Under the pieces are notes generated by a model that was given only the letters and a program-made list of their open reading frames with translations, was not told where the DNA came from and did no database searches. Both the position numbers and the translations under genes were made by a program. DNA of 64,000 nucleotides from a plasmid: sequence record NZ_CP069398.1, one strand, 5' to 3'. Of this stretch, positions 14,243-58,405 are shown piece by piece (the stretch's first letter is position 1; each line of letters begins with the position of its first letter).

Positions 14243-17209
14243 TTGAATGGAGTTGGTAATTTGGCATCTATAGAACGTACGGCTTATCCAAGATTTAAAA
14301 AACGTCCTACTTCAAAAGAACTTCGTGATGTTTACTCCCCTACACCTGAAGAAAACCAATTTGCGCATAAAGTTGCTAGAGGACCTGTTTCAGTTCTAAG
14401 TCTATTAGTTATGTTAAAGTCTTTCCAACGACTTGGTTACTTTCCTCGACCGAAAGATATTCCTGTAGAGATCATGATTCATATTCGGACCTGTTTGAAT
14501 CTCTCTGCTAGTGTTGAACCGAATTACAATAGTAAATCAATTTACCGACATCAAAAAGCAATTAGAGATTACCTCAATGTACGTCCTTATGGAAAAGAAG
14601 CCTTACATATTGCAACTACTTCAATTTATAAGGCTACACAGGTAATGGACAATCCAGCCGATCTTATCAACGTATCCATTGAAATATTAATAAAAGAAAG
14701 GTGTGAATTACCTGCTTTTAGTACATTAGATCGATTGGCTCGTCGTATAAGAACATTAGTGAATCACCAGTTATTTAATTCAGTATTTTCAAAATTGACT
14801 CCTGAAATTGAGCGAAAATTAGATCAATTACTAGTTACTAAAAATGATAATCGGACTTCTGAATATAACTTATTAAAAGAAATTCCAAAAAGCGCAACAC
14901 TTTCGCATATGAAAGAAATACAAAATAGGTTACTTCTGTTAACTGATTTTATAGAAGAAATTGATAGCTTACTAGAGGATATTCCAAATTTAAAAATTAA
15001 ACACTTCGCTTTAGAAGCAAAAGCGCTTGATGCATCAGAATTAAAAGACTTTAATTTAGCTAAAAGATATATGCTGCTACTTTGTATGATTTATCGCTCA
15101 AAAATTTCAGCTATAGATAGTTTGGTAGAGATGTTTCTCAAAAGAGTCAGAACAATACATAACAAAGGCAAAGAGGAGCTAGAACTTCTTCGAGAAAAAC
15201 ATAGATCAAAAACTGAAAATCTTATATCTGTTTTGGCGGAAGTCTTAAATGCCACAAGTATAAATGAGAACGATACCTTGACTGGTCAGAAAATAAGGGA
15301 GTTATTAGGGAGAAGAGGTGGTATCGACGCATTAAAAGAAGATTGTGAATCAATTTCATCATATAATGGCAATAACTACCTTCCTCTTTTATGGAAGTTC
15401 TATAAAAGCCACAGGAAAACTCTTTTTAGATTGATTAGTATGATTGAAATTAATTCAACCACACAGGATCAATCACTTTTAGAAGCTTTACAATTTTTAC
15501 GTGATAATGAGAACCGAAAAATTGAAAATCTACAAATAGATTTGGATCTTTCATTTGCTAGTGAACAGTGGAAAAAAACGATTTATGTACCTAAAGAAAA
15601 TAACTTAATCCATCGTAAACACCTTGAAATCTGTATTTTTTCCTATCTTGCAAGCGATTTAAAAACGGGAGACCTTTGTGTAAAAGGATCAGAGAATTTT
15701 GCTGATTACCGTGAACAGCTCCTTTCTTGGGATGAGTGTAAACCTATGGTAGATGAATACTGTAAGGAACTTGGCTTTTCTTCAAATTCAGGGGATTTTG
15801 TTCAACAATTAAAGCTCTGGCTAGGAGATACTGCACAAAAAGTAGATTTAAACTACCCTGATAACGGCCAGGTAATCATTAATGAAAATGGAGAACCAAC
15901 GTTGAGAAAAATAATGAGAAAAGAACAACCTCAGACAAGTAAGGCGTTAGAGGTAGTTATTTCTCAACGGTTACCTGAACGAAATGTCTTAGATATTCTT
16001 TGTAATGTAGAACATTGGACAAATTGGACACGGCATTTTGGACCATTATCTGGTTCAGATCCTAAGCTTGAAAATGCAATGGAACGTTATATCATTACTT
16101 CTTTTGGATACGGATGTAATTTAGGACCAACACAGACTTCTAAGCACATGAAAAAAGCAGTAACCCCACACATGATTTCATTTGTAAATCGGCGACATAT
16201 TAATGCATCTAAAATAGACGAAGCTATTCGTAATATTTTAAATCAATACAATCAATTTAGTTTGCCTAGACTATGGGGTGATGGAAAAACGGCTGCTGCA
16301 GATGGAACAAAATTTGATCTCTACGAAGAAAACTTAATCTCTGAATACCACATTCGATACGGAGGTTATGGGGGGATTGCATATCATCATGTTTCAGATA
16401 CTTATATTGCACTCTTTAGTCACTTCATTCCATGTGGAGTTTGGGAAGCAGTTTATATTATTGATGGTTTGCTGAAAAATAAATCAGACATTCAGCCCGA
16501 TACGTTACATGCTGATACGCAAGGTCAATCAACGCCTGTTTTTGCACTTGCACATTTATTGGGGATTAATTTAATGCCTCGTATTCGAAATTGGAAGGAT
16601 TTAAAATTTTACAGGGCTGATAAGGACACAAAATATCACCACATTGATCAGTTGTTTAGTGATACCGTTGACTGGGACCTAATTGAAACACACTGGCAAG
16701 ATCTGCTCCAAGTGGTTCTTTCTATAAAAGCTGGTAAAATATTACCCTCTACACTACTTAGAAAACTAAGTAACTATAGTAGAAAAAACCGATTATATCA
16801 AGCTTTTAGGGAATTAGGAAGGATTGTAAGAACTGTATTTTTGCTTAAATATATTTCTGATATAAAACTAAGAGAGCAAATTGGTGCTAGTACAAACAAA
16901 GTCGAAGCATATAACGGCTTTTCCAAATGGCTATTTTTTGGTGGCGATGGGATCATTTCAGAAAATGATCCAGAAGAACAAGAAAAGCGAATTAAATATA
17001 ATGATTTAGTTGCCAACGCAGTAATATTCCAAAATGTATGTGATATAACACTTATTTTGTGGGAACTTTCTAAAGAAGGCTATGTATTTTCAAAAGAAGA
17101 TATTGTCATGCTTAGCCCTTATCTGACTAGGCATATAAAACGTTTCGGAGACTATATGATCGATTTAGAAAATATTCCACAACCAATCGAGGGAGATATT
17201 CCTGTATAG
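14243..17209 (+). CDS. tnpA: Tn3-family DDE transposase
   Basis: 988 aa, the characteristic length. The gene ends 49 bp from the 42-bp terminal IR. Confidence 0.85.
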   Translation: MNGVGNLASIERTAYPRFKKRPTSKELRDVYSPTPEENQFAHKVARGPVSVLSLLVMLKSFQRLGYFPRPKDIPVEIMIHIRTCLNLSASVEPNYNSKSIYRHQKAIRDYLNVRPYGKEALHIATTSIYKATQVMDNPADLINVSIEILIKERCELPAFSTLDRLARRIRTLVNHQLFNSVFSKLTPEIERKLDQLLVTKNDNRTSEYNLLKEIPKSATLSHMKEIQNRLLLLTDFIEEIDSLLEDIPNLKIKHFALEAKALDASELKDFNLAKRYMLLLCMIYRSKISAIDSLVEMFLKRVRTIHNKGKEELELLREKHRSKTENLISVLAEVLNATSINENDTLTGQKIRELLGRRGGIDALKEDCESISSYNGNNYLPLLWKFYKSHRKTLFRLISMIEINSTTQDQSLLEALQFLRDNENRKIENLQIDLDLSFASEQWKKTIYVPKENNLIHRKHLEICIFSYLASDLKTGDLCVKGSENFADYREQLLSWDECKPMVDEYCKELGFSSNSGDFVQQLKLWLGDTAQKVDLNYPDNGQVIINENGEPTLRKIMRKEQPQTSKALEVVISQRLPERNVLDILCNVEHWTNWTRHFGPLSGSDPKLENAMERYIITSFGYGCNLGPTQTSKHMKKAVTPHMISFVNRRHINASKIDEAIRNILNQYNQFSLPRLWGDGKTAAADGTKFDLYEENLISEYHIRYGGYGGIAYHHVSDTYIALFSHFIPCGVWEAVYIIDGLLKNKSDIQPDTLHADTQGQSTPVFALAHLLGINLMPRIRNWKDLKFYRADKDTKYHHIDQLFSDTVDWDLIETHWQDLLQVVLSIKAGKILPSTLLRKLSNYSRKNRLYQAFRELGRIVRTVFLLKYISDIKLREQIGASTNKVEAYNGFSKWLFFGGDGIISENDPEEQEKRIKYNDLVANAVIFQNVCDITLILWELSKEGYVFSKEDIVMLSPYLTRHIKRFGDYMIDLENIPQPIEGDIPV

Positions 17210-28860: not shown

Positions 28861-31302
28861 TTATGAATTTATGTTTTGTTTAATCTTATTCAATATATCT
28901 TTTTGAGTATTCGTTATTTTTGGTGTTTCATCTTCTACTGTTTTCTCCAAAGTTGCTACAACTTGTTGTTTTTCAGTTGCCGCAGCGACTTGTTGATTTT
29001 GAAAATGTACAATAGCTTCATTAACAATTTCTCGATTTTTCTTTTGTTGCTCCATTTTCTTTTCTTCTTCTGCCTTTATACGCTGCTGCTCTTTTTCCTC
29101 TTCCAATTCCTTTTTACGTTGTTCCATACTAGCTATTTGCAGTTCTTCGTACTGCTTCACTTTTTCATCAAACAAGGCTTTTGCGTCTGCGTCTGTAGAT
29201 AGTTCATAGTCCTGCAAATCTATTTTATATTTCTCTGTTAACGCTACTTTGTTTTCATCTAGAAAGTACTTATATTGATAAGCTTTATTTAGTCGTATAG
29301 GGTTAGTATTATCTGTAACTAATAAAGCTTCATCTTTTGGTAATGATTTTACTTCTGTTGGGTCTAATAAAGGACGTTTCACTACGCTTGTAGACTCACT
29401 GCTTGAACTTCCAGTATTGGACGTATTTTTGGATTTAGATACGGCTTCTACTGTCGTAGAACCTAGCAGGTTACTAAATAATTCTTGTGTTGCTTTATCT
29501 GATGCTTTTAATAAAAGCTTAGCAGAACAATTGGCCAGAAAACTATCCGTTTCCTTCGGATAAGTTTTTTCAATTTGAGTGATATTTTGTAGGATTGGAA
29601 CTACCGATATACCGTAGCCTCGACACGTACTTAAAAATGTAGTGAAATCTGGTAGTTTAGAAATGTTTGCAAATTCATCTAAAATAAATTGTACAGGTAC
29701 ATATAACTCTTTCTTTTGCGTTTCCCTTGCCACCATTTTTAACTCTCGGAATAGCTGCCTAATGAATAAACTTACTAACGATGCAAATGATTTATCATCC
29801 TCATCAATAATTAGATATAGAGCTACCTTTTTACGTCCTATATTTCCTAATAAAAAATCACTGCTGCTTGTTAATCTGCGTACTGCGTTTGATGCAAAAT
29901 CTGATACAGTTGTAAGTAATGAAATGATAATCCCTGCACGTGTTTTACCAATCGATTTTTTATAACCTAATTCATATTGTTCTCGGGCAGGGTGATTAAA
30001 GCTGAGTCGCCCAAACATGGCATCTAAAGCCGACTGTTCTTCCTCTTTGTTGAAAGTATCTTCAAACTCACGCAAGAAGTTCAAAATCCCCCCTAGATTA
30101 CGGTCTTGAGGTTCAAATTCATATACTGCATAGAGAATTAAGGCTTTTAATAATGCTAATTGAGCGTTAATCCACACATTGGACTGGGACATATCATTTT
30201 TACTTGAAACTATGGCATGGGCTACAGTTGATGCATCAGTTTCTTTTCTAACATAGTCCAGAGGATTCCAACAGTTAGATGACCACATATCTAGAAAATT
30301 CATCACAATGACTTGATAACCTTGCTTTTCTTTAATACGCGCCGTATTAACAAATACCTCACCTTTTGGATCTGTTACAACTACACTTGATTGAGTTTGG
30401 AACATAACATTCCCCATTACAAAACCTTGAGTTTTCTTTCCACCTGAGCCCCCAACAACTATTACATTACGATTACCTAATTCTGAATCAAATGTTTGAA
30501 TGACAGGTGAAGAATCTTTTATGCCAAATATAGTTCCTGATTGGGGATATAGCTCTTTAAATTTCTTTTTTTGCAGTTCTGTATAGTAATCCATACTAAA
30601 AGGAATATAAGAAACCATTTCTTCTTCTGATAAATCTTGAAGGTTATATGAATACGATTCGTTCCCCTTATTGACTGTTAGCATTTTTTTCTCAGAAAGC
30701 TGCAACTCATATTTTAGAAATTCATCCCGTCTTTCTGGTTTTATTCTTTCGGCTGCATCTTCTATTTTCTTTACACGAGACATTTCAAACCGTTTTAACC
30801 TTGATAAGTTGTCTTTAATTGAAGTAACAATTTCTTGGTCAACCTCGGCTTCACCGTTCAATATCTTTTTGTACTCTTCGTCAACTTCCTTTTGAATATT
30901 AAAACTTGCTTCAATATCAGCAACCAGTTGTTTACTTGGCATTTTTTTAGCGAAGTAACTTAAGTCAAATGCTTCTTTGATTGTTGCCCATCTTGATGTA
31001 CCATGCACACCCACATGATGGGCGGCTTTATACCCTTTTTGACTGCTTCCAGATGCACGAAGCATTACAAAAATGATTCCTAGTAGTAACAGAGGTTGAG
31101 CGATTTTAAAGGGAACTTGCTCCCATGCGGATGGGAGCAAGTCAATAGGCGATTGAGCAAAGTTTAAAGCTACATTAATTACTTCTTGAGGTTGTTTAAT
31201 AACGACGGGGACAGTAGCGAATACAACAGCTAAAACATAGTCTACTATAAGTGCTAAAACGAATAGAAAAGTAAATATTCCGGCTTTAGGCAAAACAATC
31301 AC
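28861..31302 (-). CDS. Type IV coupling protein, VirD4/TraG/TraJ(pIP501)/PcfC-like
   Basis: Two N-terminal TM helices, then a P-loop NTPase (VVGGSGGKKTQGFVMGN) and a Walker B-like LYLIIDE. Long K/E-rich coiled-coil tail, 813 aa. It is the last gene of the T4SS operon. Confidence 0.7.
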   Translation of the reverse strand: MIVLPKAGIFTFLFVLALIVDYVLAVVFATVPVVIKQPQEVINVALNFAQSPIDLLPSAWEQVPFKIAQPLLLLGIIFVMLRASGSSQKGYKAAHHVGVHGTSRWATIKEAFDLSYFAKKMPSKQLVADIEASFNIQKEVDEEYKKILNGEAEVDQEIVTSIKDNLSRLKRFEMSRVKKIEDAAERIKPERRDEFLKYELQLSEKKMLTVNKGNESYSYNLQDLSEEEMVSYIPFSMDYYTELQKKKFKELYPQSGTIFGIKDSSPVIQTFDSELGNRNVIVVGGSGGKKTQGFVMGNVMFQTQSSVVVTDPKGEVFVNTARIKEKQGYQVIVMNFLDMWSSNCWNPLDYVRKETDASTVAHAIVSSKNDMSQSNVWINAQLALLKALILYAVYEFEPQDRNLGGILNFLREFEDTFNKEEEQSALDAMFGRLSFNHPAREQYELGYKKSIGKTRAGIIISLLTTVSDFASNAVRRLTSSSDFLLGNIGRKKVALYLIIDEDDKSFASLVSLFIRQLFRELKMVARETQKKELYVPVQFILDEFANISKLPDFTTFLSTCRGYGISVVPILQNITQIEKTYPKETDSFLANCSAKLLLKASDKATQELFSNLLGSTTVEAVSKSKNTSNTGSSSSESTSVVKRPLLDPTEVKSLPKDEALLVTDNTNPIRLNKAYQYKYFLDENKVALTEKYKIDLQDYELSTDADAKALFDEKVKQYEELQIASMEQRKKELEEEKEQQRIKAEEEKKMEQQKKNREIVNEAIVHFQNQQVAAATEKQQVVATLEKTVEDETPKITNTQKDILNKIKQNINS

Positions 31303-36009: not shown

Positions 36010-37932
36010 TTACAACACCTCGCGTTTAATATCGCTAATATCATAGTCTGGTACAACAGAGGCATCTTTCTTATATGTTTCTTGGTATCGTACTTTATCA
36101 AATAAGCGCATTTCTTCTTGTGATTGGATAACTTCCATGTAGACCCTCTTTGTACCAATACAATAAATGCCCTTTCCTTTCTGCTTTCTTTTTAGAATAT
36201 CTATCTCGCTTTCTGATAAGCTAACTCCTCCCCGAGATACAAGGTCATCAATTCCCTTTTCTTCTAATCCTAAGATGAATTTTGTGTAAGAATTTTCAAT
36301 AATAGCAGCTCCATAATTCCTTTTTCCGTCTGATGCAGATAGATAATCATCAATCTGTTGTGTGGTAACCGTACAACCTCCGAAATACTTTCTTATACGC
36401 TTGTATATCTGATACACGAATTTCATTAGCATTGGGTGGTCTGGATCGGCTAATACGTGGCATTCGTCGATGTACAAACGTTTGGGCTGTGTTTTGTCTT
36501 TTGTGATTTCATCCCAGAGAAAAGTGATTACATTGTACATGGCAGCACGTTTCAAATCCGATCCGTCTTCTAGATGTTTTAAATCAAAGGAAATCAGATC
36601 GTTTTTTAAATCTACCTTTGTGTGACCATTGAATAGTTTTGAATTTGTACCTGAGACGTATGTTTTAAAAATAAGTTTAAATTGACGTAGTTCGTCCGCC
36701 TCTTCTTTTGGAAGTTTGTCGATTTGTTCGTATAAGTCGCTGAATGTCGGGAATGATTCTGAAGTTAATTCTCTGAAGTCTGTTTTAAATGTAATTTCTT
36801 TAGCTGCATAGGTTTTAATAAGAACTTGCTCAAGTAAAGCTTCTTCTACTTGTGATAAGTCTTTTTTTATTGCTTTGAATAAGATTTTCAATCTTTGTAT
36901 TTTTTGGTCAATTAAAGAACCAACTAATTCTATATCTTGATCTTCATCTTCGACTGTATCTAAATTTTTCGAATCAGTAACGGCTGTATTCATGATTTCA
37001 AGTGGATTAATTACTGTTTTTGACATGTTCGAAACTGTAACAACAGTACCTCCGAGAGAGGTTACAATACCTGTGAATTCTCCTTCTGGATCAATGATGA
37101 AATTTCTCACGCCTTGAATCCAGTGTCTCAACATATCTGATGTCATAGTTGTTGTTTTGGCCATACCTGAAAAACCTGCACTAAATTCATTGTGGTTTGC
37201 TAAAGCAAAGTGGTCTACTAATACGATGCTGCCTGTGGTGATATTTTTACCCTTTACGACGCTGTATTTCGATTGGTTGAAGATTTCACTATCATCAAAA
37301 GGGAAAACTGAAGATACAGCTTCAACATCCATATTTCTAAATGTTACATCAGGAACTTGATTTGCCATCAACGGAAGTGTTGATTGAAATGCTTGCGCAC
37401 TTCGATATTTAACCAGCGTTCCTTTTAACTTTACTCGCCGCAATGCGCCTAAAACTCTTTCCCGTAAACGACTTAACTCCGCCATACTCTCAGCGTGTAT
37501 ATTTAAGTACATATGAACACGAAACATAGCATCATTGTCACTTTCGATTAATTTGTCCATCAAGCGAGTTGCATCTTTAAAGTCTAATAGAGCATTACGT
37601 TTTTTTTCTTCATCTGCACTAACTGTTCTAGATTCCAATTCTGGAATTGCTGAACGTAAATGTTTGATCATTTCCGAGCTTGGGATTTTTTCAATGTGGA
37701 AAGAGATAGATAAATTACCTTGAAATCGTCTTAATCTAGAAAGCCAGTTACCATATAGACGTTTTGGGTAATCATATACACAAATAGTTTGAACATAATT
37801 TCTTCCAATCTCCATATGCAATTCTTTTTCATCTATTGAATCAGGGGCTAAAACATCCTTAAAGGATGTTAAGTCCGATTCGTGTAGAATCGGTTCAGCT
37901 TCTTTAAACGACTTCTTGTTTCTTAATTTCAA
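36010..37932 (-). CDS. VirB4-family conjugal transfer ATPase (TraE/PrgJ/ConE-like), C-terminal 640 aa
   Basis: VirB4 N-domain pattern (ICVYDYPKRLYGNWLSRL). ATPase motifs: Walker A-like GFSGMAKTT, IDPEGEF, Walker B LYIDECH. Confidence 0.75.
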   Translation of the reverse strand: MKLRNKKSFKEAEPILHESDLTSFKDVLAPDSIDEKELHMEIGRNYVQTICVYDYPKRLYGNWLSRLRRFQGNLSISFHIEKIPSSEMIKHLRSAIPELESRTVSADEEKKRNALLDFKDATRLMDKLIESDNDAMFRVHMYLNIHAESMAELSRLRERVLGALRRVKLKGTLVKYRSAQAFQSTLPLMANQVPDVTFRNMDVEAVSSVFPFDDSEIFNQSKYSVVKGKNITTGSIVLVDHFALANHNEFSAGFSGMAKTTTMTSDMLRHWIQGVRNFIIDPEGEFTGIVTSLGGTVVTVSNMSKTVINPLEIMNTAVTDSKNLDTVEDEDQDIELVGSLIDQKIQRLKILFKAIKKDLSQVEEALLEQVLIKTYAAKEITFKTDFRELTSESFPTFSDLYEQIDKLPKEEADELRQFKLIFKTYVSGTNSKLFNGHTKVDLKNDLISFDLKHLEDGSDLKRAAMYNVITFLWDEITKDKTQPKRLYIDECHVLADPDHPMLMKFVYQIYKRIRKYFGGCTVTTQQIDDYLSASDGKRNYGAAIIENSYTKFILGLEEKGIDDLVSRGGVSLSESEIDILKRKQKGKGIYCIGTKRVYMEVIQSQEEMRLFDKVRYQETYKKDASVVPDYDISDIKREVL

Positions 37933-40370: not shown

Positions 40371-41549
40371 TTGCCTCTGTTTAACTTACATCAAATTTAT
40401 TGGTGTGCAGATAAAATGGAGGTAATTTTTGTGCGGAAGTTAAAAAGAGTTGTCATTAAAGAAGAATTAGTCGAGTTAACAGGTGATTCAGTTAAATCAC
40501 TAATTCTAAGTCAATTCCTTTACTGGACAGATATAATGAACAATTTAGATGAGAAGAAGAAAAGAGACATTGAAGCCTTTGAAAAGATCGGTGAGACCTA
40601 TGAGGCTAATAAACTTAGAAAAGAATTACGAAACGGTTGGTTTTTTAAATCGGCTGCTGAACTTGATGACGAGATTATGATTAGCAAACGCTCAACAATT
40701 GACAGGAAGTTAAAAGAATTGATTGAGCTTCCTTTTATCGAAACTAGAACACCTGATGAAATGGCGAAGACTAATCGAGAAAAAGCTAATCGTTCAACTT
40801 GGTATAGAATTGATTTAAAAATTCTACATAAAGAGTTAAAGAAAATTGGTTATCCTTTAGAAGGCTATTCATTACCAGAAGACGAAGAAAGCCTATCAGA
40901 TAGCATTGCTCAAAATGAGCAATCAGAAAAAACGTTGATAAATAGCATTGCTCATTTTGAGCAATCCACTGCTCATTTTGAGCAATCCACTGCTCAAAAT
41001 GAGCAATCATACAATGTATTACTACAGAATATTACTACAAATACATTAGTAAGTAAGTATGTAGGCGCTAACGCTCAATCTATATTTGAGCTTTATAAAA
41101 AGGACTTTAAACCAACAACACATGCCAAGAATTCTATTGAACTATTTTGTGAAACTTATTCACCTGATTTAGTTGCAGAAGCAATTCAAAGAGCTGTTAT
41201 GAATGAAGCTGATAAGCCAATAGCTTTTATTAAGAAAGTTTTATTTAATTGGCATGAAGCTGGATGCTCAACTGTAGAACAGGTATTAGATCATGAAAAG
41301 AAATTCAAAGAGGAACGGAAAAGAAAGCTTGCTGAAAAGCGAAAAAAGCAGTCTTCAAATAAAAAAATTGTAAGAAAAGAAATGGTACCTGAGTGGCATG
41401 GTAAAAGTAATGAAGAGAATAAAGCCGATGCTAAAGCACACGAAAATATGTCTGATGAAGAGTTTGAGATTGAGAAACGCAAATTACAAGAAGAACTTAA
41501 AGCGTTAAACGCTGAATTGAAAAACAAAGGCAAAGAACAACCTGTTTAA
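40371..41549 (+). CDS. Replication initiator/replisome organiser with a C-terminal DnaD domain
   Basis: DnaD-like C-terminal domain (IFELYKKDFKPTTHAKNSIELFCETYSPDLVAEAIQRAVMNEADKPIAFIKKVLFNWHEAG). Iterons lie inside the gene. A basic K/E-rich tail. The start is uncertain; a GTG at 40432 with RBS AAATGGAGGT is the alternative. Confidence 0.65.
   Translation: MPLFNLHQIYWCADKMEVIFVRKLKRVVIKEELVELTGDSVKSLILSQFLYWTDIMNNLDEKKKRDIEAFEKIGETYEANKLRKELRNGWFFKSAAELDDEIMISKRSTIDRKLKELIELPFIETRTPDEMAKTNREKANRSTWYRIDLKILHKELKKIGYPLEGYSLPEDEESLSDSIAQNEQSEKTLINSIAHFEQSTAHFEQSTAQNEQSYNVLLQNITTNTLVSKYVGANAQSIFELYKKDFKPTTHAKNSIELFCETYSPDLVAEAIQRAVMNEADKPIAFIKKVLFNWHEAGCSTVEQVLDHEKKFKEERKRKLAEKRKKQSSNKKIVRKEMVPEWHGKSNEENKADAKAHENMSDEEFEIEKRKLQEELKALNAELKNKGKEQPV
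40902..41008 (+). repeat. Iteron array (candidate replication origin) inside the rep gene
   Basis: Four 21-23-bp repeats, each containing a dyad TTGCTCA(AAAT/TTTT)GAGCAA: agcattgctcaaaatgagcaatc; agcattgctcattttgagcaatcc; actgctcattttgagcaatcc; actgctcaaaatgagcaatc. Confidence 0.65.
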
Positions 41550-44010: not shown

Positions 44011-44586
44011 TTACACTCCTTCTTCTTCATTATCGTTTCTTTCGCTAAGTAAAATATAATCCTTATTTATTCGTTTTTGTGCTTTCACCATATCTCCAAA
44101 TTGAATAGCAACTTGTTCAGCTTCTTCTTGACCAGTAATATCAAAATACTTTTCAAAAATCGCTCCAACCTGTACAAGTCTTCTTGTTCTCTCTCTACGT
44201 TCTTTTTCTTTTGCTCTTTGTTTTAATTCTTTCTCTTGTTTTAAAAGCTTTGTTTTTTGTTCTTCAATTTTTTTAAGTTTTTCTTCAATAGTTGGCATAT
44301 AAAACAGTCCTTTCAATTCATTTTTTATTTTTTTGTTTTTGGTATTTTGAACTTTGGTTTTTATTAGACAGAAAATTAAGATAAACCAATTATACCATTT
44401 GATGGAATAAAAATATAGTGTTATAATGGTCACTATAGAAGATAGTGCGCACTTATACATTGTTTCAATGTGTGCGGTTGCTTCGCAACAAAAACGAAAA
44501 AAGAAAATACAAAAGATAAATATAGTCCTCGCTACGATGCGGTGTTGCTTGAAGAGTCTAAAAAAAGGGGGTAAGAATAATGGCAA
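44011..44586 (-). CDS. Hypothetical protein with an N-terminal TM and a C-terminal coiled coil
   Basis: 191-aa ORF. The start is probably downstream of the annotated Met. Confidence 0.3.
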   Translation of the reverse strand: MPLFLPPFFRLFKQHRIVARTIFIFCIFFFRFCCEATAHIETMYKCALSSIVTIITLYFYSIKWYNWFILIFCLIKTKVQNTKNKKIKNELKGLFYMPTIEEKLKKIEEQKTKLLKQEKELKQRAKEKERRERTRRLVQVGAIFEKYFDITGQEEAEQVAIQFGDMVKAQKRINKDYILLSERNDNEEEGV

Positions 44587-46601
44587 TTTATCACTATAAC
44601 ATGCAAATGATTAAAAGGTCAGAAGGAAGAAATGCAGTTGCTTGTGCAGCTTATCGTTCTGGCGAAACGTTAGTTGATGAATCAACAGGATTTACAAAAG
44701 ATTATCCAAGAGACGTTCAACCAATTGCTTTTATTCTTGCTCCTGAAAATGCTCCGAAATGGGTTTATGACCGTCAGAAATTATGGAGTGAAGTTGAGAA
44801 AGTTGAAAAGAGAAAAGACTCGCAACTTGCACGTGAGATTAATATTGCATTACCAGTTGAATTATCTAATGAACAACAAGAAAAATTAGTGCGTGAATTT
44901 GTATCTGATAATTTTGTTTCCAATGGAATGATTGCAGATGTTGCAATTCATAGAGACGATATTAATAATCCGCATTTTCATGTTATGCTTACAACTCGTC
45001 ATATTGATGAGAACGGATTCGGTAAAAAAGCAAGAGAATGGAATCCTAGTTTTAAGAATGTACAGAACGGAAGAGGTTTTGTTGCTGAAACTAATACAAT
45101 TATTCATGCTCGTGAAATGTGGGCTAAGTATGCTAATCAATCTTTAGCTGATGCTGGTATTGAACAACGTATTACGCATTTGAAATTAGAGGATGGGACG
45201 TTGAAATTAATTCCTACAAAACACTTAGGACCGACTGCAAACGCGATGGAAAAACGAGGTATTAAAACAGATGTTGGTGATCTGAATCGCGAAATCAAAA
45301 AACATAATGCTGAGGTTCTATCTTTCCATGAAAGAAAGAAAGAACTTGAAAAGGAAAAAAAGCAGCAGCGTGAATTTGATTCTTTAACACCAGATGAAAA
45401 AGTAGCGATTAAAAACGCTGCTAAAGAAATGAAAAAATATGTTGATTACGATATTTGTAATGAGCGTCTTGAACAATTAAATAACTGGGAGACTTCTGTA
45501 GAACGTAAGCTTTCACTAAATCCTAATGACATCAATTTAAATAAGCAATTGAAAACAATCCATGAGCAACGTAAAGTTGTAAAAAATGCCATGAAGGCAT
45601 TTGAAAATGAGGCTAATAGATATTTAATTGCTAAGTTTGATGCATCTTTAGTAAATGAATTTACTCCTGATGAACAACGTTATATTTATGACTATATTCA
45701 GAAATATGGAGAAGTTGAGGAGTCAAATTTAAAACATATTGTTGCTCGTTATGATGATGAACAATCTTTAAAGTCTGTCTCTAAATTTATGAAACAAGAT
45801 GTTACTTATGATTCTTTAAAGACTGAAATAGATAAATTGCATTTATGGAAAAATTCTATTGACCGGAAGCAAGCAGAATTAATTACAGCCTATGAAAATT
45901 CGAGTAACAAGGAAATGTTTGAAAAAGATCATTCCCAAGAGTTTAAAGATGTTTTTGCTCAAGAAGAATCTTATGAAAAGAAAAAGATTATTATTGAAAA
46001 AGCATTTGAGGTTTTAGAAAGACAAATGATTATGAAATTCGCTTTGGTATACCCTGAGTATCCGTATATTTCAGATATGAAACCGGAAGCAGCTAAACAC
46101 ATTCTAGACTTAAATGCATACTACGGAAAAACAATTCCTTTAAATGAAATTAGTAATATTCAGAATCAACCTAGATTTACATTTGATGAAAGAAAAGAAA
46201 TTCATGAGTCTATCCAGGAGCTAAAAGAAGTGCAAAAAATGATTCGTTCCTTTAGCAAAGAAGATAGCCCAGAAGCACAAGAGAATTTACCATTATTACA
46301 GTCTTATTCTACACAACAAAAAGAAGCGTTCTTGGCGAAATACGATATAGATATTACTGATCCTGTATTTATACGCCTGTTCATGGAAGAATGTAAACAT
46401 CAAAGAGATCCGTTTATCGAGATAGATGGCCTAACATATTTAGATAACAATACAAATAATCCTCTAATGTCAAACAACATTTTAGGTGATATTATAACAG
46501 CCCTAGAACAAGCTGAACGTGATGCAGACCAACGTGCTCAAGAAAGACAACGCATGGGTAAAGGTAGAGGGAAACGTAGAAATATTGGTTTAGACCTATA
46601 A
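44580..46601 (+). CDS. MobA/MobL-family (MOBQ) relaxase
   Basis: N-terminal MAIYHYNMQMIKRSEGRNAVACAAYRSGE is the conserved MobA/MobL start with the catalytic Tyr region. Histidine triad HFHVML. 673 aa with a coiled-coil C-terminus. Confidence 0.8.
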   Translation: MAIYHYNMQMIKRSEGRNAVACAAYRSGETLVDESTGFTKDYPRDVQPIAFILAPENAPKWVYDRQKLWSEVEKVEKRKDSQLAREINIALPVELSNEQQEKLVREFVSDNFVSNGMIADVAIHRDDINNPHFHVMLTTRHIDENGFGKKAREWNPSFKNVQNGRGFVAETNTIIHAREMWAKYANQSLADAGIEQRITHLKLEDGTLKLIPTKHLGPTANAMEKRGIKTDVGDLNREIKKHNAEVLSFHERKKELEKEKKQQREFDSLTPDEKVAIKNAAKEMKKYVDYDICNERLEQLNNWETSVERKLSLNPNDINLNKQLKTIHEQRKVVKNAMKAFENEANRYLIAKFDASLVNEFTPDEQRYIYDYIQKYGEVEESNLKHIVARYDDEQSLKSVSKFMKQDVTYDSLKTEIDKLHLWKNSIDRKQAELITAYENSSNKEMFEKDHSQEFKDVFAQEESYEKKKIIIEKAFEVLERQMIMKFALVYPEYPYISDMKPEAAKHILDLNAYYGKTIPLNEISNIQNQPRFTFDERKEIHESIQELKEVQKMIRSFSKEDSPEAQENLPLLQSYSTQQKEAFLAKYDIDITDPVFIRLFMEECKHQRDPFIEIDGLTYLDNNTNNPLMSNNILGDIITALEQAERDADQRAQERQRMGKGRGKRRNIGLDL

Positions 46602-48909: not shown

Positions 48910-49580
48910 CAAATGATATTTCATCAAGGAACTCCTACAACATTATCATAGAAAGACACTGCCGATAATTGGTATTATGGTGCGACAAGAAGTCGCTTTC
49001 TTACAGTGTAGCTAACGCTACTCATCTAGACGCGAAGATGATCTCCATCCGAAACGGCATTCTTGGTAACGAGTCTGTCGGTTGCATGAGGAAATGTGGA
49101 AACAGAGGACAAATGCATGGTCCAGAATACTGCTAGGAGAAGATAGGTATGGTAAACAAAAGTGAAGGTTTGTAAGCTTCGTAAGGGTTAGCTCAAGATA
49201 ATGCACAGCTTTGCTTGGGTCTTGGCAAGAGGAAAAGTAGAATCATAATGCTGCTCTGATGCGTCCCGCATCTTGCCCGGAGTAAAGAACCTACCTACCC
49301 CTATCGCATCTGTAGGAAGTGGAACTTGGTAAGCCCTATGTCATCTGCATAAGCAGTAGGATGACTGTAAAGTCAAACGATGTGGCAGAGGGTATGGGAT
49401 ATGAGAAAAAGCGAAAGCCGTTACCCTGAAAAGGGACAGGAAAGCAGAAACACTGTATAACTGGACGGATACTGTCGTCTCTATTGACAATGACAGGCTC
49501 GAAAGAGCGCCCACTTCTCATTGGTCTTCAACACGAAAATAAATTTGTGGCTATCTTCTAACGAAAAGGAGCGTGCTGTT

Positions 49581-50163
49581 ATGAATACCTCTCTACGAGC
49601 GTCGGCGCACGTCTCGCATAAAGATTGGTACTCTATTGATTGGAGTATTATACAAAAATATGTAGCGAAGTTACGACAAAGAATTTATCGTGCCGAACAG
49701 CAAAATCAACAAAGAAAAGTAAGGAAACTTCAACGTTTACTCCTACGGAGTAAAGCAAATCTGCTGCTTTCCATTCGCAGAGTAACACAACAAAACAACG
49801 GTAAGCGAACACCTGGTGTAGATGGCTATACGGCTTTAAAACCAAGCGAACGTATCAAACTTTATAAACAGATAGTTAAATGTAATGTCTTCCGACATCG
49901 TCCAAAGCCAGCAAAACGAACGTTTATCCCGAAGAAAAATGGAAAAATGAGACCTCTCGGTATCCCCACGATACGAGATCGAGTGTATCAAAACATAGTA
50001 AAAAACGCACTCGAACCACAATGGGAGGTCAAGTTTGAACCAACTTCTTACGGTTTTCGTCCTAAACGAAGCACACACGATGCTATAAGTAATCTTTTTA
50101 ATAAGCTTAACACGAATAGTAAGAAAAAGTGGGTATTTGAGGGAGATTTTTTAGGATGCTTTG
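49581..50163 (+). pseudogene. Intron A copy 1 RT/maturase ORF, 5' part (interrupted by intron B)
   Basis: RT domains 0-4 (RPLGIPTIRDRVYQ). The ORF stops 2 codons into intron B (GDFLGCF|GA*). Confidence 0.75.
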
Positions 50164-52795
50164 GTGCGTGACGTTAATCTGAAATTTCAATAGAAATATT
50201 GATTGGGATGATTTAGTAATAAACTGCAATTCTGATAGAGGGAATGAAAGCCGTCATGTTGAGCTGAAACCTCTACACTGATACTCCCATGTGCAGAAAG
50301 AAAGGCTAATTTTGGACTGTTTAGTAGCTGGGTAAAGTCGATGAAATCTAATGGAATTCAACATTAGGTCAGAGTAATCGGGTGGTGATAGTACATGGTG
50401 AGAATGTTCTTTTAGAACCGACGAACTTCCGAATGTACAGGTCCTTAACCTAGGGATTTCCTGAGATGGATTTCTTGCCTCACACTGAGGTAGTTGGTGG
50501 AGTGAAGTAAAAATCGAAGCTATGAAACACTCTGTGTTTAACAATGAAAACAATGTGCCAACGGGCTTATAGGAAGCACCTAACTACTATCTATACTAGG
50601 AACTGTGGAACGTCAGAAACTAGAAACTGAGGTCTTCTTCGGAAGGAAAACGATTAGCCTCGAACAGGTGTATTGAAAACCTCACGGTATAAGATACTTT
50701 ATTCTAGTGAAAGTGGTGCCATAGTACCAATGAAACTGCTAATCATAGTTGAGGGAGGGGCACTAGTCAATCCTATTTTATTAGTAACTCATACAATAGT
50801 TGAACTTCTATCTTCGAGTATGACAGGGAAAGCATCTCCTAGGAGGTGTCCCAATAGAAGGCTTATGAACAAATACAGGTATTCAGATTACTACAATATG
50901 ACGCCCATATTTGATGAACTCTATCAGAAATCGAGTGAAAACAAGAAATTCAAAAAACTGATGGATGTAATCCAATCGGATAACAACATTAAGCTCGCTT
51001 TCAGAATGATAAAATCAAATACTGGTTCAAAAACAGCTGGAACTGATGGACTAACCATCCAAAATATTAAAGAAAATAATATTGATGAATACGTCCAGCA
51101 AGTACGTAATAAGCTTAACAACTTCAGTCCAGATGAAGTCAGAAGGGTTCATATCCCTAAGGAAAATAGCAAAGAAAAAAGACCGTTAGGTATTCCCACG
51201 ATGATAGACAGACTGATTCAACAATCGATTAAACAAGTTCTAGAGCCTATATGTGAAGCGAAATTCCATCCACATAGTTATGGGTTCAGACCTAACAGAA
51301 GTACAAATCATGCTCTGGTAAGAATGAGTTCATTGGTTAATGTAGGTCATTTTTATCATGTTGTGGACATCGATATTAAGGGGTTCTTTGATAACGTAAG
51401 CCATAACAAATTGATTAAACAAATGTACTCGCTAGGTATCCATGATAGAAAACTTCTATCGGTTATTAAATCAATGTTGAAAGCCCCAATCGCTGGAGAA
51501 GGTATTCCAACCAAGGGAACACCGCAAGGTGGAATCCTTAGTCCCCTTCTCTCTAACATAGTTCTTAACGAACTAGATTGGTGGATTAGCTCACAGTGGG
51601 AAACGTTCAAAACCAAATCTAACTATTCAAATGACTCAAACAGATATAGAGCTATCAACAAAACAAAATTGAAAAAGATTTTCATCATTAGATATGCAGA
51701 CGACTTTAAGATTATGTGCAAAACTCATAAACAGGCTCAGAACATATATCATGCAGTCAAAGATTGGTTGAAACAAAGACTTGGTTTAGATATAAGCCCT
51801 GACAAATCCAAAGTCATTAACTTAAAAAGAAATCCTTCGGATTTTCTCGGATTTGAAATTAGAGCAGTTAAAAAGAGTGGAAAATATGTTGCGTACTCTC
51901 ATGTTAAGTCGAAAGCTAAGGTTAGAATCAGGAAACAATTAACAGAACAAGTTAAGAAAATCCAGAAGAAACCTTCGCCTGAAAACATTAAGCGATTAAA
52001 CGCAATCATATTAGGACTCCATGTTTACTATAAGTCCGCAACTCACGTCTGGAAAGACTTTGGAGAAATTGCTTACCCTGTATATAGGATGATGTTCAAC
52101 CGTCTGAAAAAGTTATCTAAATATGAAAAGGTTAAGAAAAAGAACACTATTTTTGGGAAATTCTATGGAAAATGCGATGCAAAAACATGGACGATTAGTG
52201 GAATTTCCATATTCCCTATTCACTATGTGCATTCGCAGAACATCATGTGCATTCGCAAGACACATGTGATTATACAAACAAAGGTAGACAGAAATCTACC
52301 AAGGCACTGAAAAATCAAACCGATATTAAAGTCATAGAACTTGCGAAAAACTACGTCAAAGAACGAAGCATACAATACAACGATAATCGTATAGCTCGTG
52401 CGTCGATGTGCAGTTTTAAATGTGAACTAACTGGAATGGAACTTGAAGTTAAAGATGTGCACGCACATCACAAAATACCTATTAAATTAGGTGGAACGGA
52501 TGAATACGATAATTTAATAATTGTTCATAAAGATATCCATAGACTTATTCATGCAACATCTGAAACAGTAATAAACAAGCACATTAACCTTATTCATAAC
52601 AAGCAAAAGCTTAAAAAGCTGAATACTTTAAGGGCATATTGTAAACTAGAAGCCATTTCAATGGCTTCAGAGGATAATAATAAAATAGCTTGATGGAACG
52701 CCGTATGCAGGGAAACTTGCACGTACGGTGTGAGGTGGGGGAAAAGTAAGTATCGTCACAGGTAATGCTGTCGAGAACACTTACCTATCACGCAT
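50164..52795 (+). mobile_element. Group II intron B (2,632 bp), inserted inside the IEP ORF of intron A
   Basis: 5' GTGCGTGACG. Domain V-like GAACGCCGTATGCAGGGAAACTTGCACGTACGGTG. Ends ...CGCAT. Excising it joins ...GGATGCTTTG|ACCATCTTAATCATGATTGG to give DFLGCFDHLNHDWIVEQT, which matches copy 2 (DFSGCFDHLNHNWIMEQT). Confidence 0.8.
50673..52693 (+). pseudogene. Intron B IEP (RT, maturase X, HNH endonuclease), frameshifted by a 20-bp tandem duplication
   Basis: RT motifs (RPLGIPTMIDRLIQ, YADDF) lie in the 545-aa ORF and the HNH domain (HAHHKIPIKLGGTDEYDNL) in the 148-aa ORF in the +2 frame. The tandem repeat atgtgcattcgca(g/a)a at 52225..52264 causes the shift. The true start is probably an internal Met near 50865. 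Confidence 0.75.
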
Positions 52796-53862
52796 ACCAT
52801 CTTAATCATGATTGGATAGTAGAACAAACATCTATGTTTCCAGGAAACACTCTCATCAAAAGATGGCTTAAAATGGGTTACATAGAGCAGGATATGCTTC
52901 GTACGACAACAGAAGGAACCCCTCAAGGGGGTATTGTGTCTCCCCTTCTAGCTAATATCGCCTTATGCGGTATGGAAGAAGAAATTGGTATTGTTTATAA
53001 AAAGACATACAAACCAAACGGAGGATACGCAATCGATCCAAAATGTAAGATAGGACGTGTTCTCTATGCCGATGACTTTGTCATCGTAACGGAAACGAAG
53101 GAAAAGGCTGAAAGCATGTATGAGAAACTAACTCCTTACTTACAAAAGCGAGGAATTACACTTAGTAAAGAGAAAACTAGAGTTACACATATTGAGAACG
53201 GGTTTGATTTTCTCGGTTTCTCGCTGCGTCAATACAAGACGGAACAAGGTAATAAGCTACTAATCAAACCTAGCAGAGACAGCATTAAAAAAGCAAAAAA
53301 TAAGATAAAAGATACGTTCGCATTAATGAGAGGACGCCCAATAAAAGAACTAATACGTGTTTTAAATCCAATTATTCGTGGTTACGGACAGTATTGGAAA
53401 CATGTCGTTTCTAAAAAGACGTTTGGATATATGGATAATTACTTATTCCTTAAAATAACAAAACACCTTAAACGACTACATCCAAAGAAGGCGTGGAAAT
53501 GGATTATTAAACGTTATTTTAAGAAGCCCAACCATGGAGGGAATGATAAATGGACTCTCACATGTCCACTTACTAACATTCAATTGTTAAAGATGTCTTG
53601 GATTAAAATAGAACGGCATGTCATGGTAGCCTATAAAAACAGCCCAGATGATCTGAGTCTAAGAGAGTATTGGGAAAAACGAGACCGTAAGGTCTTTAAT
53701 AATGAAAATACATTGGATAGGATGAAACTCGCAAGAAAACAAGGATATCGTTGTGCATTGTGTAAGCAGACTTTACAAAATGGAGAGAAAGTTACAGTGC
53801 GAAACTTAGAGGTTTCTACAGGTGAATTTGCTAAATTAGTACATGTACCATGTATTAAATAA
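52796..53862 (+). pseudogene. Intron A copy 1 RT/maturase ORF, 3' part (RT5-7, X, C-terminal Cys motif)
   Basis: YADDFVIV. The C-terminus CALCKQ...HVPCIK is about 93% identical to copy 2. Confidence 0.75.
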
Positions 53863-54108
53863 ACAAGTTGTTCGGATAAAAAGAAGGCTTGAGCCGTATG
53901 ACGGGAAATCTGTCACGTACGGTTCTTAGGGGGGCGGGCGCTCGTGAGAGTGCCTGCCTACCCGACTTAACTAAGGATGGATGAAGTATACATGTAGTTA
54001 TGCTCATCTTTTAGGGTCTGCTACTAAGTTTCATGGAAAATAAAGTATGTACTTTGCTTTCTGATAAGTTTAAAATTATTTAGAAGATTCTTTTAAGAGG
54101 TGTAACTT

Positions 54109-55988: not shown

Positions 55989-55996
55989 AGTCTTTA

Positions 55997-56027
55997 AAAG
56001 TTCCCTGATAAGTGGGAACTTTTTTAT
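55997..56027 (+). terminator. Rho-independent terminator of the signal peptidase gene, 24 bp upstream of the intron A copy 2 insertion site
   Basis: aaagttccc-tgataagt-gggaacttttttat. Confidence 0.65.
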
Positions 56028-56050
56028 TTGTTCCGGTAATTGGTTTTATG

Positions 56051-58405
56051 GTGCGACAAGAAGTCGCTTTCTTACAGTGTAGCTAACGCTACTCATCTAG
56101 ACGCAGAGATGATCTCCATCCGAAACGGCATTCTTGGTAACGAGTCTGTCGGTTGCATAAGGAAATGTGGAAACAGAGGACAAATGCATGGTCCGGAATA
56201 CTGCTAGGAGAAGATAGGTATGGTAAACGAAAGTGAAGGTTTATAAGCTTCGTCACAGTTAGCTCAAGATAATGCATATTCTTGCTTGGGTCTTGGTAAG
56301 AGGAAAAGTAGAATCATAAAGCTACTCTAATGCGTCCCGCATCTTGCCCGGAGTAAAGAACCTGCCTACCCCCGTCGAATCTGGAGGAAGTGGAACTTGG
56401 TAAGCCCTACGTCATCTGCATAAGCAGTAGGATGACTGCAAAGTCAAACAATGTGACAGAGGGTATGGGATATGAGAAAAAGCAAAAGCCGTTACCCTGA
56501 AAAGGAACAGGAAGGCAGAATCACTGTATAACTGGACGGATACTGTCGGCTCTACAGACAATGACAGGCTCGAAAGAGCGCCTACTTCTCATAGGTCTTC
56601 AACACGAAAATAAATTTGTGGCTATCTTCTAACGAAAAGGAGCGTGCTGTTATGAATACCTCTCTACGAGCGTCGGCGCACGTCTCGCATAAAGATTGGT
56701 ACTCTATTGATTGGAGTATTATACAAAGGTATGTAGCGAAGTTACGACAAAGAATTTATCGTGCCGAACAACAAAATCAACAAAGAAGAGTAAGGAAACT
56801 TCAACGTTTACTCCTTCGGAGTAAAGCAAATCTACTGCTTTCTATTCGCAGAGTAACACAACAAAATAACGGTAAGCGAACACCTGGTGTAGATGGCTAT
56901 ACGGCCTCAAAACCAAATGAACGTATCAAACTTTATCAACAACTAGTTCAATGCAATGTCTTTCGACATCGTCCAAAACCAGCAAAAAGAACATTTATTC
57001 CGAAGAAAAACGGAAAGCTACGACCTTTGGGCATTCCTACGATACGAGATCGAGTCTATCAAAACGTAGTAAAAAACGCACTCGAACCCCAATGGGAGTT
57101 TAAGTTTGAGCCCACATCCTATGGTTTTCGTCCTAAACGAAGTACACACGATGCTATAAGTAATCTTTTTAATAAGCTTAACACCAATAGTAAGAAAAAG
57201 TGGGTGTTTGAGGGAGATTTCTCAGGATGTTTCGATCATCTTAACCATAATTGGATAATGGAACAAACATCTATGTTTCCGGGGAGCACTCTCATTAAAA
57301 GGTGGCTTAATATGGGATACATAGAGCAGGATATGCTTCATATGACAATAGAAGGAACCCCCCAAGGGGGGATTGTGTCTCCCCTTCTAGCTAATATCGC
57401 CTTATGTGGTATGGAAGAAGAGATTGGTATTGTTTATAAAAAGACTTACAAACCAAACGGAGGATACGCAATTGATCCAAAATGTAAGATAGGGCGTGTT
57501 CTATACGCAGATGATTTCGTCATCGTAACGGAAACGAAGGAAAAAGCTGAAAGTATGTATGGGAAACTCACCCCTTACTTACGAAAACGAGGAATTACAC
57601 TTAGCATGGATAAAACTAAAGTTACACATATCGAGGGCGGGTTTGATTTTCTTGGCTTCTCGCTGCGTCAATACAATACGGGACAAGGAAAGAAGTTATT
57701 TATCAAACCTAGCAGAGACAGCATTAAAAAGGCTAAAAACAAGATAAAAGATACGTTCTCTGTGATGAGAGGACGACCAGTAAAAGAACTAATACGTGTT
57801 TTAAACCCGATTATTCGTGGCTACGGCCAGTATTGGAAACATGTCGTATCCAAAAAGACTTACAGCTATATGGACAATTATATTTTCCTAAAAGTGAGAA
57901 AACACCTTAAACAATTGCATCCAAAGAAGTCGAGAAAATGGATTAGCAATCGTTATTTTAAGAAGCCCCACCACGGTGGAAATAATAAATGGATTCTCAC
58001 GTGTCCACTTACTAACATTCAACTGTTAAAGATGTCCTGGATTAAGATAGAACGGCATGTCATGGTAGCCTATAAAAACAGCCCAGATGATCCGAGTCTA
58101 AGAGAGTATTGGGAAAAACGAGACCGTAAGGTCTTTAATAGTGAAAATACATTGGATAGGATGAAACTCGCAAGAAAACAAGGATATCGTTGTGCATTGT
58201 GTAAGCAGACTCTACAAAATGGAGAGACAGTTACAGTGCGAAAACTAAAGGTTTCTAGAGGTGAATTTGCTAAATTAGTACATGTACCATGTATTAAATA
58301 AATAAGTTGTTCGGATAAAAAGAAGGCTTGAGCCGTATGACAGGAAATCTGTCACGTACGGTTCTTAGGGGGGCGGGCGCTCGTGAGAGTACCTGCCTAC
58401 CCGAC
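56051..58405 (+). mobile_element. Group II intron A, copy 2 (2,355 bp, intact)
   Basis: Same 5' GTGCGACAAGAAGTCGC and 3' domain V/VI as copy 1. Single uninterrupted IEP ORF. Confidence 0.8.
56652..58301 (+). CDS. Group II intron-encoded reverse transcriptase/maturase (intact)
   Basis: RBS AAAAGGAG 8 nt upstream of the ATG at 56652. RT motifs RPLGIPTIRDRVYQ and YADDFVIV. Maturase domain. C-terminal CxxC...HxPC cluster but no canonical HNH domain. Confidence 0.8.
   Translation: MNTSLRASAHVSHKDWYSIDWSIIQRYVAKLRQRIYRAEQQNQQRRVRKLQRLLLRSKANLLLSIRRVTQQNNGKRTPGVDGYTASKPNERIKLYQQLVQCNVFRHRPKPAKRTFIPKKNGKLRPLGIPTIRDRVYQNVVKNALEPQWEFKFEPTSYGFRPKRSTHDAISNLFNKLNTNSKKKWVFEGDFSGCFDHLNHNWIMEQTSMFPGSTLIKRWLNMGYIEQDMLHMTIEGTPQGGIVSPLLANIALCGMEEEIGIVYKKTYKPNGGYAIDPKCKIGRVLYADDFVIVTETKEKAESMYGKLTPYLRKRGITLSMDKTKVTHIEGGFDFLGFSLRQYNTGQGKKLFIKPSRDSIKKAKNKIKDTFSVMRGRPVKELIRVLNPIIRGYGQYWKHVVSKKTYSYMDNYIFLKVRKHLKQLHPKKSRKWISNRYFKKPHHGGNNKWILTCPLTNIQLLKMSWIKIERHVMVAYKNSPDDPSLREYWEKRDRKVFNSENTLDRMKLARKQGYRCALCKQTLQNGETVTVRKLKVSRGEFAKLVHVPCIK

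Follow-up and report, generated by a model that had tools for sequence, protein, structure and literature searches.

A group II twintron on a Priestia plasmid, with an HNH-encoding inner intron placed at reverse transcriptase motif A of the outer intron

Introns within introns that splice sequentially were reportedly described from Euglena chloroplasts by Copertino and Hallick (1991/1993), and introns that home at the YADD motif and form twintrons are said to have been reported by Dai and Zimmerly in 2003 (RNA 9:14). The YADD-homing lineage, which includes M.a.I5 of Methanosarcina acetivorans, UA.I3, P.l.I2 of Photorhabdus luminescens and B.th.I3, lacks an endonuclease (En) domain and homes into the RYADD sequence of other reverse transcriptase (RT) open reading frames (ORFs) (Tourasse & Kolsto 2008, PMC2504315). 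Twintrons have also been found in bacteria and archaea, where they are rare (PMC4424553, PMC4649490). Intron-mining pipelines explicitly drop them (PMC4028801, PMC8919778), and for this reason such twintrons go unannotated. The window analyzed here, a 64,000-nucleotide stretch of the plasmid sequence record NZ_CP069398.1, contains two copies of a group II intron, intron A, the first of which carries a second group II intron, intron B, inside the ORF for its intron-encoded protein (IEP). With a probability of about 0.88, the locus is a true group II twintron, carried by a Priestia replicon that resembles a conjugative plasmid, and in it intron A has been invaded by an unrelated intron B that encodes an HNH-containing IEP and homes on the DNA of RT motif A.

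The observation itself is confirmed. An earlier note, made from the letters of this DNA, had placed the twintron at its present coordinates, and these coordinates and the strings quoted were all correct. The composite, inner and outer introns measure 4,987, 2,632 and 2,355 bp. Once B is removed, the alignment proposed in that note, of 48980..53966 with copy 2 (56051..58405), contains no gaps and matches at 2,162 of 2,355 positions (91.8% identity). Copy 1 starts with GTGCGACAAG and ends with ...CCTACCCGAC. B is inserted between nucleotides (nt) 1184 and 1185 of A, upstream of domain V, 583 nt into the outer ORF and in codon 195 of 549. Its borders are unambiguous: the two junctions have different bases, which prevents any sliding of the insertion, and colinearity with copy 2 fixes both ends. 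Restoration of the outer ORF, also claimed earlier, is borne out by a joined ORF of 549 codons that is colinear with that of copy 2 and reads ...WVFEGDFLGCF/DHLNHDWIVEQT... (the slash marks the insertion point here and below), the equivalent in copy 2 being ...GDFSGCFDHLNHNWIMEQT. The restored IEP is 90.9% identical to that of copy 2, with 87 synonymous and 50 nonsynonymous codon differences. In the window copy and in seven other copies, the inner intron lies wholly within the outer one and its clean removal leaves a continuous outer intron.

The proteins and ribozymes support the view that A and B are two different group II introns, with B wholly in the domain IV ORF of A, as had been noted before. 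The two IEPs are only ~32% identical, and the extra 2.6 kb has the GUGYG...AY boundaries and the domain V expected of an intron, with GTGCG at its start, CGCAT at its end and an Rfam match to domains V and VI. The D1-D4 region of B matches RF02004 (group-II-D1D4-5) at 50219-50392 with 71.9 bits (gathering threshold, 34.5; E ~4e-14). A bulged branch-site A is found at 52787, 8 nt upstream of the 3′ splice site, and the intron ends in ...GCAU. A single-sequence minimum free energy fold of B nt 1-707 was uninformative (z = -0.22). The catalytic-triad position of B domain V (52698-52731) is CGC, where AGC is usual, and 4 nt separate the domain VI helix from the 3′ splice site, compared with 2 nt in the Rfam consensus. 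The IEP of B is approximately equidistant from every solved intron RT (E values from 1e-41 to 5e-46).

The IEP of intron A combines RVT_N, RVT_1 and GIIM domains and has no HNH match. Its closest solved relative is the T.el4h RT (PDB 6ME0, E = 5e-97), with LtrA at E = 7e-40; this relative and the presence of RVT_N suggest that intron A is chloroplast-like (CL-like) by its IEP. The termini of A are GTGCG...GAC, and domains V and VI of copy 2 (58328-58405) match RF00029 with the same score as those of copy 1 (65.7 bits, E ~1e-11), while no Rfam D1-D4 family was found for intron A at E ≤0.1. The borders of A are independently supported by the pairing of exon-binding site 1 (EBS1) with intron-binding site 1 (IBS1), because the exon GTTTTATG of copy 2 pairs with EBS1 CATAAAGC, a compensatory change with respect to copy 1. 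Of two named introns, either of which may correspond to A, B.me.I1 is listed as class B and B.me.I2 as CL1B (Toro 2013, PMC3552965).

The insertion point of B identifies the sequence on which it homes. RT motif A (block RT-3) carries the catalytic aspartate, and B splits the outer ORF between the F and this D, at GDFxGCF/DHLNH (here GDFLGCF/DHLNH). The position is the same in all twintrons of the B lineage in which the intron is nested in an RT gene. EBS1 of B is invariant among these RT-nested members and changes to CGAAGA at locus L046, where exon position -6 is U rather than G, and thus covaries with its target. The candidate EBS2 shows one compensatory change, at locus L043, where U279 is replaced by C and exon position -8 changes from A to G; together, EBS1 and this tentative EBS2 would read the codons G-C-F-(D). 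Another candidate EBS2, UCCUGAGA at 50459-50466, forms 8 bp with the empty site in copy 2 and was downgraded, as it shares bases with a hairpin whose loop is conserved and whose stem covaries.

Relatives of B occupy the same position in other outer RT genes. The outer RT reads GDFQGCF/DHLNHEW around a relative from Bacillus cereus (L041, IEP 89% identical to that of B), GDFKGCF/DNLNHEY at L044 (73%), GDFKGCF/DNLNHEH at L045 (69%) and GDFKGCF/DNLNHEY at L043 (65%). At L039, a ~99% (99.35%) copy of B itself sits at CF/DSLSHDY in a different outer RT, which shares 50% amino acid (aa) identity with that of A. The outer RTs of these five loci are 48 to 71% identical to the IEP of A, and their tblastn alignments always break at A residues 194/196. 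The F/D target specificity therefore appears to be a trait of the lineage. One 61% relative of the B IEP, at L046 (2295-5030), lies in a non-RT gene, a large helicase/methylase-type ORF that exceeds 3,000 aa once joined and includes SNF2/helicase and DUF8437 domains; the relative has TTTTCG as IBS1 and, as EBS1, the CGAAGA mentioned above. This locus may mark an ancestral, non-RT target of the lineage. The broader proposal stands at even odds: that B represents a previously undescribed endonuclease-encoding lineage (IEPs at least 65% identical) of Bacillaceae and other Firmicutes-like genomes, a dedicated hyperparasite that always homes at the motif A F/D of CL-type intron RT genes, spreads independently and perhaps also inside its host, and makes expression of the host-intron protein dependent on its own excision.

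The nesting is not confined to the window and occurs at at least eight other Priestia loci on plasmids and a chromosome, including the finished plasmids pNCT2_6 and pNCT2_3 of P. megaterium NCT-2 and at least six further assemblies. A itself is widespread among Priestia plasmids, its 5′ half matching 85 plasmid records of this genus. A protein-collection search retrieved the B IEP at 98 to 100% identity in ~24 protein clusters from P. megaterium, P. aryabhattai and other Priestia, and every one of these copies with enough flank is nested at the same position of an A-type intron, at different genomic sites that include a 5.07-Mb chromosome contig. Megablast of B against plasmids returned only the two NCT-2 copies and a 55-nt domain V match in B. 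cereus-group plasmids, and the phage collection contained no match to the twintron. A scan of species-representative genomes (one per species) with the B IEP gave relatives at 42 to 67% identity, none of them nested, and is uninformative on close copies.

The inner intron is far more uniform than the introns around it. Across eight nested copies at different loci, B is 99.3 to 100% identical (median, 99.5%), the outer 5′ halves are 90.1 to 100% identical (median, 92.2%) and the outer 3′ halves are 85.9 to 100% identical (median, 89.7%); the B of the window is 99.3 to 99.6% identical to 11 other copies. Without B, each of the eight outer ORFs stays open over 549 codons, and all inner ORFs except that of the window have 609 codons. 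The near identity of B in diverged outer copies indicates that B homed recently into already divergent copies of A. The same logic was applied to the Thermosynechococcus elongatus twintrons, where identical inner introns in diverged outer copies implied recent independent insertions (Mohr et al., PMC2882425). Tracts of identity break within 10 nt of the B borders: pNCT2_6 and pNCT2_3 show 2 differences between A nt 1 and a point 10 nt beyond the 3′ border of B, followed by 13 to 18 differing sites per 100 nt, and the window differs from pNCT2_6 up to position -2 of the 5′ junction of B and is nearly identical to it beyond. Such mosaics can arise by one-sided co-conversion or by gene conversion that stops at heterology, which are indistinguishable here.

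It is possible, at somewhat less than even odds, that the nested copies spread mainly as an A+B unit through retrohoming of a 5-kb intron, and that their outer halves diverged later by gene conversion with B-less copies of A. The twintrons of L033 (a plasmid contig) and L035 (a chromosome contig of a sister assembly) have 0 mismatches in 4,985 nt. Their surroundings diverge right at the outer borders: identity upstream is 78%, with -10 and -16 among the mismatched positions, and the sequences downstream are unrelated. Two explanations fit, transfer of the whole composite or movement of A alone followed at once by reinvasion. Spread as a unit is also favored by pNCT2_6 and pNCT2_3, which share the 5′ half of A and B (99.8 to 100%) from A nt 1 onward, with an allele of the 5′ half that is found attached to B only. 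However, both halves of the outer allele of the window are known without B, at 99.7 to 99.8% identity in NZ_CP092388.1, and the outer halves differ (86 to 93% identity) in most pairs between which B is uniform. Moreover, the presence of B at L039, in so distant an outer RT, is explicable only by independent homing. The two modes of spread are not mutually exclusive.

The B copy of the window differs from all others by a frameshift in its IEP gene: every other copy is 2,633 nt long and has an intact 609-codon ORF. The earlier note had not mentioned this frameshift. From residue 463 onward, the window protein departs from the intact 609-aa NCT-2 protein, and its DNA-binding/HNH part is out of frame. 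Programmed frameshifting was considered for this split ORF and ruled out, given the one continuous ORF in all other copies. Because the IEP has lost its DNA-binding/endonuclease region through the 1-nt deletion, this copy of B is probably immobile and may still splice. The copy-1-type site is AGGATGCTTTG/ACCATC and that of copy 2 is AGGATGTTTCG/ATCATC, and the T at position +2 of the latter recurs in B. cereus, at the site filled in L041. Copy 2 thus offers, 2 kb away, an apparently competent yet empty target, and this unoccupied match fits a loss of mobility; on the simplest reading, the B of the window would no longer be mobile. The IEP of B has its own equivalent of motif A, DIDIKGFF/DNVSH, and the corresponding DNA (51379-51390, GGGGTTCTTTG/ATAACG) is a near-cognate of the B target, with 10 of 11 positions able to pair with GUCCU and CGAAGC and a mismatch at -6. 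Nesting of B in B was not seen.

The same facts could be taken further, in that copy 1 might be a dead-end relic in which B cannot splice with its broken IEP, the RT of A copy 1 is permanently split, neither copy-1 intron functions and only copy 2 is alive. This reading is less likely than not. It draws on the frameshift at residue 462 and the loss of the DNA-binding/En region, on the lack of a second B copy in the window and on the vacancy of a good target in copy 2, but other copies of B may exist elsewhere in the same genome. The RT and thumb/X part of the IEP is intact apart from 5 substitutions, and only 18 of 2,633 positions distinguish the B of the window from active-looking copies, all of them outside EBS1, EBS2 and domains V and VI. 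LtrA with C-terminal Zn/En deletions keeps its splicing activity, and the same may extend to B. In addition, the ORF of A copy 1 is still open once B is removed.

Read without splicing, the outer ORF of copy 1 stops 8 nt into B, at a TGA (50169-50171), so that the IEP of this copy needs prior excision of B. From the nesting, the earlier note had concluded that A could move only once B had been spliced out. This holds only for expression of the copy-1 IEP in cis and not necessarily for mobility, because B sits in the domain IV coding loop and leaves the ribozyme core of A uninterrupted, because a 90.9%-identical IEP could be supplied in trans by copy 2, which lies 2 kb downstream, and because the outer intron of L033/L035 either reached its new site together with B or was reinvaded there at once.

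The sequence of events proposed for the twintron is as follows. The natural homing site of B would be the DNA for RT motif A (G-C-F/D) of CL-type intron RTs, of which B would read exon positions -6 to -1 by EBS1 (CGAAGC) and probably -11 to -7 by EBS2 (GUCCU). As the target belongs to another selfish element and encodes a conserved catalytic motif, it is available in many copies and at no cost to the host, and B would therefore behave as a parasite of intron A. Splicing and retrohoming of B find indirect support in the near-identical copies seen in diverged targets. The transcript of copy 1 would contain B, whose maturase would help its excision and so religate the ORF of A; the IEP of A could then be made and would splice and mobilize A.

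Several points weigh against this account. A systematic column-wise search found no alignment column with consistent EBS2 pairing in at least six of the seven lineage members, which leaves EBS2 unsettled. That the two introns splice, and in what order, is predicted from the sequence. The shortened IEP of B may or may not keep maturase activity, and the frameshift that shortens it could be a sequencing error. The mosaic of outer halves could have arisen as B-less copies converted others up to the heterology, and not through homing with one-sided co-conversion. Finally, instead of a loss of mobility, the empty site in copy 2 could reflect differences recognized by the protein (positions -12 to -14, +2, +11 and +15) or too little time. 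An assembly chimera or a chance intron fragment in an RT pseudogene, by contrast, can be dismissed as extremely improbable, since beyond the general risk posed by repeats and the breaks of some short-read assemblies (L037, L040) exactly at the borders of B, the insertion is base-exact and frame-preserving, and identical junctions recur in finished plasmids and at least eight independent assemblies.

Table 1. Coordinates of the twintron, of intron A copy 2 and of other features in the window
Feature	Position	Strand	Description
Twintron (intron A copy 1 including nested intron B)	48980..53966	+	Outer group II intron; 4,987 bp
5′ exon bases -8 to -1 of intron A copy 1 (IBS1)	48972..48979	+	GTATTATG; pairs with A EBS1 CATAATGC
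Intron A EBS1	49244..49251	+	CATAATGC, A nt 265-272; position kept in four A copies; covaries with exon -6
Outer IEP ORF, 5′ part	49581..50163	+	Codons 1-194 and first base of codon 195; RVT_N, start of RVT_1
B target in outer ORF	50153..50163	+	IBS2 AGGAT and IBS1 GCTTTG (-11 to -1); codons G-C-F-(D) of RT motif A
Intron B	50164..52795	+	Inner group II intron, GTGCG...CGCAT, start GTGCGTGACG; 2,632 bp (2,633 bp in all other copies)
Candidate EBS2 of B	50441..50445	+	GUCCU, B nt 278-282; pairs with -11 to -7 AGGAU; tentative
EBS1 of B	50515..50520	+	CGAAGC, B nt 352-357; pairs with targets GCUUUG, GUUUCG, GUUUUG and GCUUCG
Inner IEP ORF, shortened form	50865..52310	+	462 native and 19 out-of-frame residues, then stop; RVT_1 E = 3e-42; RT and thumb/X
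C-terminal DNA-binding/HNH part of inner IEP, other frame	52247..52693	+	PF01844 E = 9e-7; approximately residues 463-609 of intact protein
Inner IEP frameshift	52250..52251	+	GTGCATTCGC, compared with GTGCTTTTCGC in all 11 other copies; 1-nt deletion and substitution
B domains V and VI	52696..52795	+	RF00029 at 52696-52793, 56.3 bits (gathering, 40), E ~3e-9
Outer IEP ORF, 3′ part	52796..53862	+	Rest of codon 195 to stop; rest of RVT_1, GIIM
Intron A copy 1 domains V/VI	53889..53966	+	RF00029, 65.7 bits, E ~1e-11
Intron A copy 2	56051..58405	+	Uninterrupted, 2,355 bp; from alignment to copy 1 minus B
Copy 2 IEP	56652-58301	+	549 aa; RVT_N, RVT_1, GIIM
Empty B homing site in copy 2	57224..57235	+	AGGATGTTTCG/A; -11 to +1 identical to occupied NCT-2 sites
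Tn3-family transposase	14243-17209		
Type IV secretion system coupling protein	28861-31302	-	
TraG-like ATPase	36010-37932	-	
DnaB_2 replication protein	40371-41549		
MobA/MobL relaxase	44580-46601		

The replicon is Priestia (Bacillus) megaterium-like and has the look of a conjugative or mobilizable plasmid (Table 1). The window also carries a glucose-6-phosphate dehydrogenase gene and a phosphoglucose-isomerase-like gene (8420-9892 and 12063-13400). Megablast of positions 25000-48900 against PLSDB gave no plasmid match beyond 7% coverage.

The twintron is intergenic. Copies of A usually lie ~25 to 30 nt downstream of a terminator-like hairpin and T-run; such a hairpin (55996-56023) precedes copy 2 (within 55996-56050) and none is present at copy 1 (48980), and elsewhere hairpins precede A as GGGTTCTTTTTT in NCT-2 (L001/L002, ~2960-3000) and as AAGAGCTCATATTTTTG in L033/L035 (~1040-1114). 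The flanks of A sites follow a loose consensus, CC(G/T)RWAAT...(A/T)TTATG/(T/G)WAAC. The terminator-proximal sites hinted at class C, an assignment that was set aside given the CL-like IEP and the 8-bp IBS1. A domain I loop of A at 49180-49190 (A nt ~203-210) is hypervariable, with AAGGGTT in copy 1, CAGTT in copy 2 and TACTCTT in NCT-2 (L001, L002). In copy 2 and NCT-2 this loop is complementary to the exon at -13 to -9, and that of copy 1 fits its present exon poorly; the variation probably reflects retargeting by EBS2. Other copies of A are broken by an IS1182-family transposase instead of B (NZ_CP032528.1, 126699-130809; NZ_CP085486.1, 90784-94891), and A is therefore a recurrent landing pad for mobile elements.

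The nesting also leaves traces in assemblies and annotations. An ATG at 52765, within domain VI of B, is in frame with the 3′ part of the outer ORF (52765-53862), which leads gene callers to annotate a 365-aa RVT_1 and GIIM protein. This call directly follows the ltrA gene of B in all nested copies and constitutes an annotation signature for such twintrons. In the NCT-2 plasmid records of PLSDB, only the inner ltrA is annotated. Short-read assemblies often contain a contig that coincides with B (2,633 nt and 1 to 10 additional nt), as at L037, L040 and in several Logan contigs of ~2.6 to 3.1 kb; such contigs imply several copies of B per genome with differing outer flanks and are one reason for under-reporting.

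The locus provides a natural system with four states, namely, a site filled by B, a matching one 2 kb away that is empty, a natural knockout of the En domain and near-identical intact copies in sister strains. It is suited to asking whether the outer protein is gated by inner splicing, whether a 5-kb composite can retrohome and how an intron comes to exploit the catalytic motif of another retroelement as a safe, self-renewing site for homing. None of the papers in the literature collection searched describes a megaterium twintron, but neither the arrangement nor its biology is new in kind, as twintrons formed by homing into RT ORFs at YADD are already known.

Among the systems described, the Euglena twintrons resemble A and B in being introns within introns and are otherwise different, being organellar and consisting mostly of degenerate, ORF-less group II/III introns in essential genes, with no targeting of RT ORFs. 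The Tr.e.I7/I8 twintron of Trichodesmium erythraeum, like the one described here, spans ~5 kb and joins two distantly related introns, each with its own IEP (Pfreundt & Hess 2015, PMC4649490). Its inner intron lies in domain I and must splice for the ribozyme to fold, and the twintron interrupts a conserved protein-coding gene, whereas the present twintron is intergenic, with its inner intron in the domain IV ORF. Sequential splicing of Tr.e.I7/I8 was shown in vivo (PMC4649490).

In the T. elongatus TeI3-in-TeI4 twintrons (Mohr, Ghanem & Lambowitz 2010, PMC2882425), as here, the insertion is in the domain IV/ORF region of the outer intron, and the inner introns are identical while the outer ones have diverged. 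Composite and separate mobility were both considered in that study, and the outer IEP of that system is the closest solved relative of the IEP of A. The TeI3 introns are ORF-less and rely on the outer IEP, and they sit between its first two ATGs, such that this protein can still be made from the second ATG (PMC2882425). B, in contrast, has its own IEP and splits the catalytic domain of the RT, so that the outer IEP requires splicing.

The closest parallel is the YADD-homing lineage. Like its members, B appears to home on a conserved catalytic RT motif of other introns or retroelements, has its IBS1 and probably its IBS2 in the codons of the motif, gives rise to nested introns and gains a "perpetual" neutral site. 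B is set apart from the descriptions of that lineage by its target motif, its size and its HNH domain. A further hallmark of the lineage is 58 to 67% nucleotide homology to M.a.I5/B.th.I3 over the full length. The YADD introns target motif C (RYADD), are ~1.8 kb long and lack an En domain, and replication-fork priming has been proposed for them (PMC2504315), whereas B targets motif A (GCF/D), within GDFxGCF/DxLxH at codon 195, is 2.63 kb long (2,633 nt) and encodes an HNH domain. The system is distinguished by its motif A target and its endonuclease-encoding inner intron, shows a modestly novel pattern at the level of the lineage and adds to YADD a second RT motif as a target of intron-in-intron homing.

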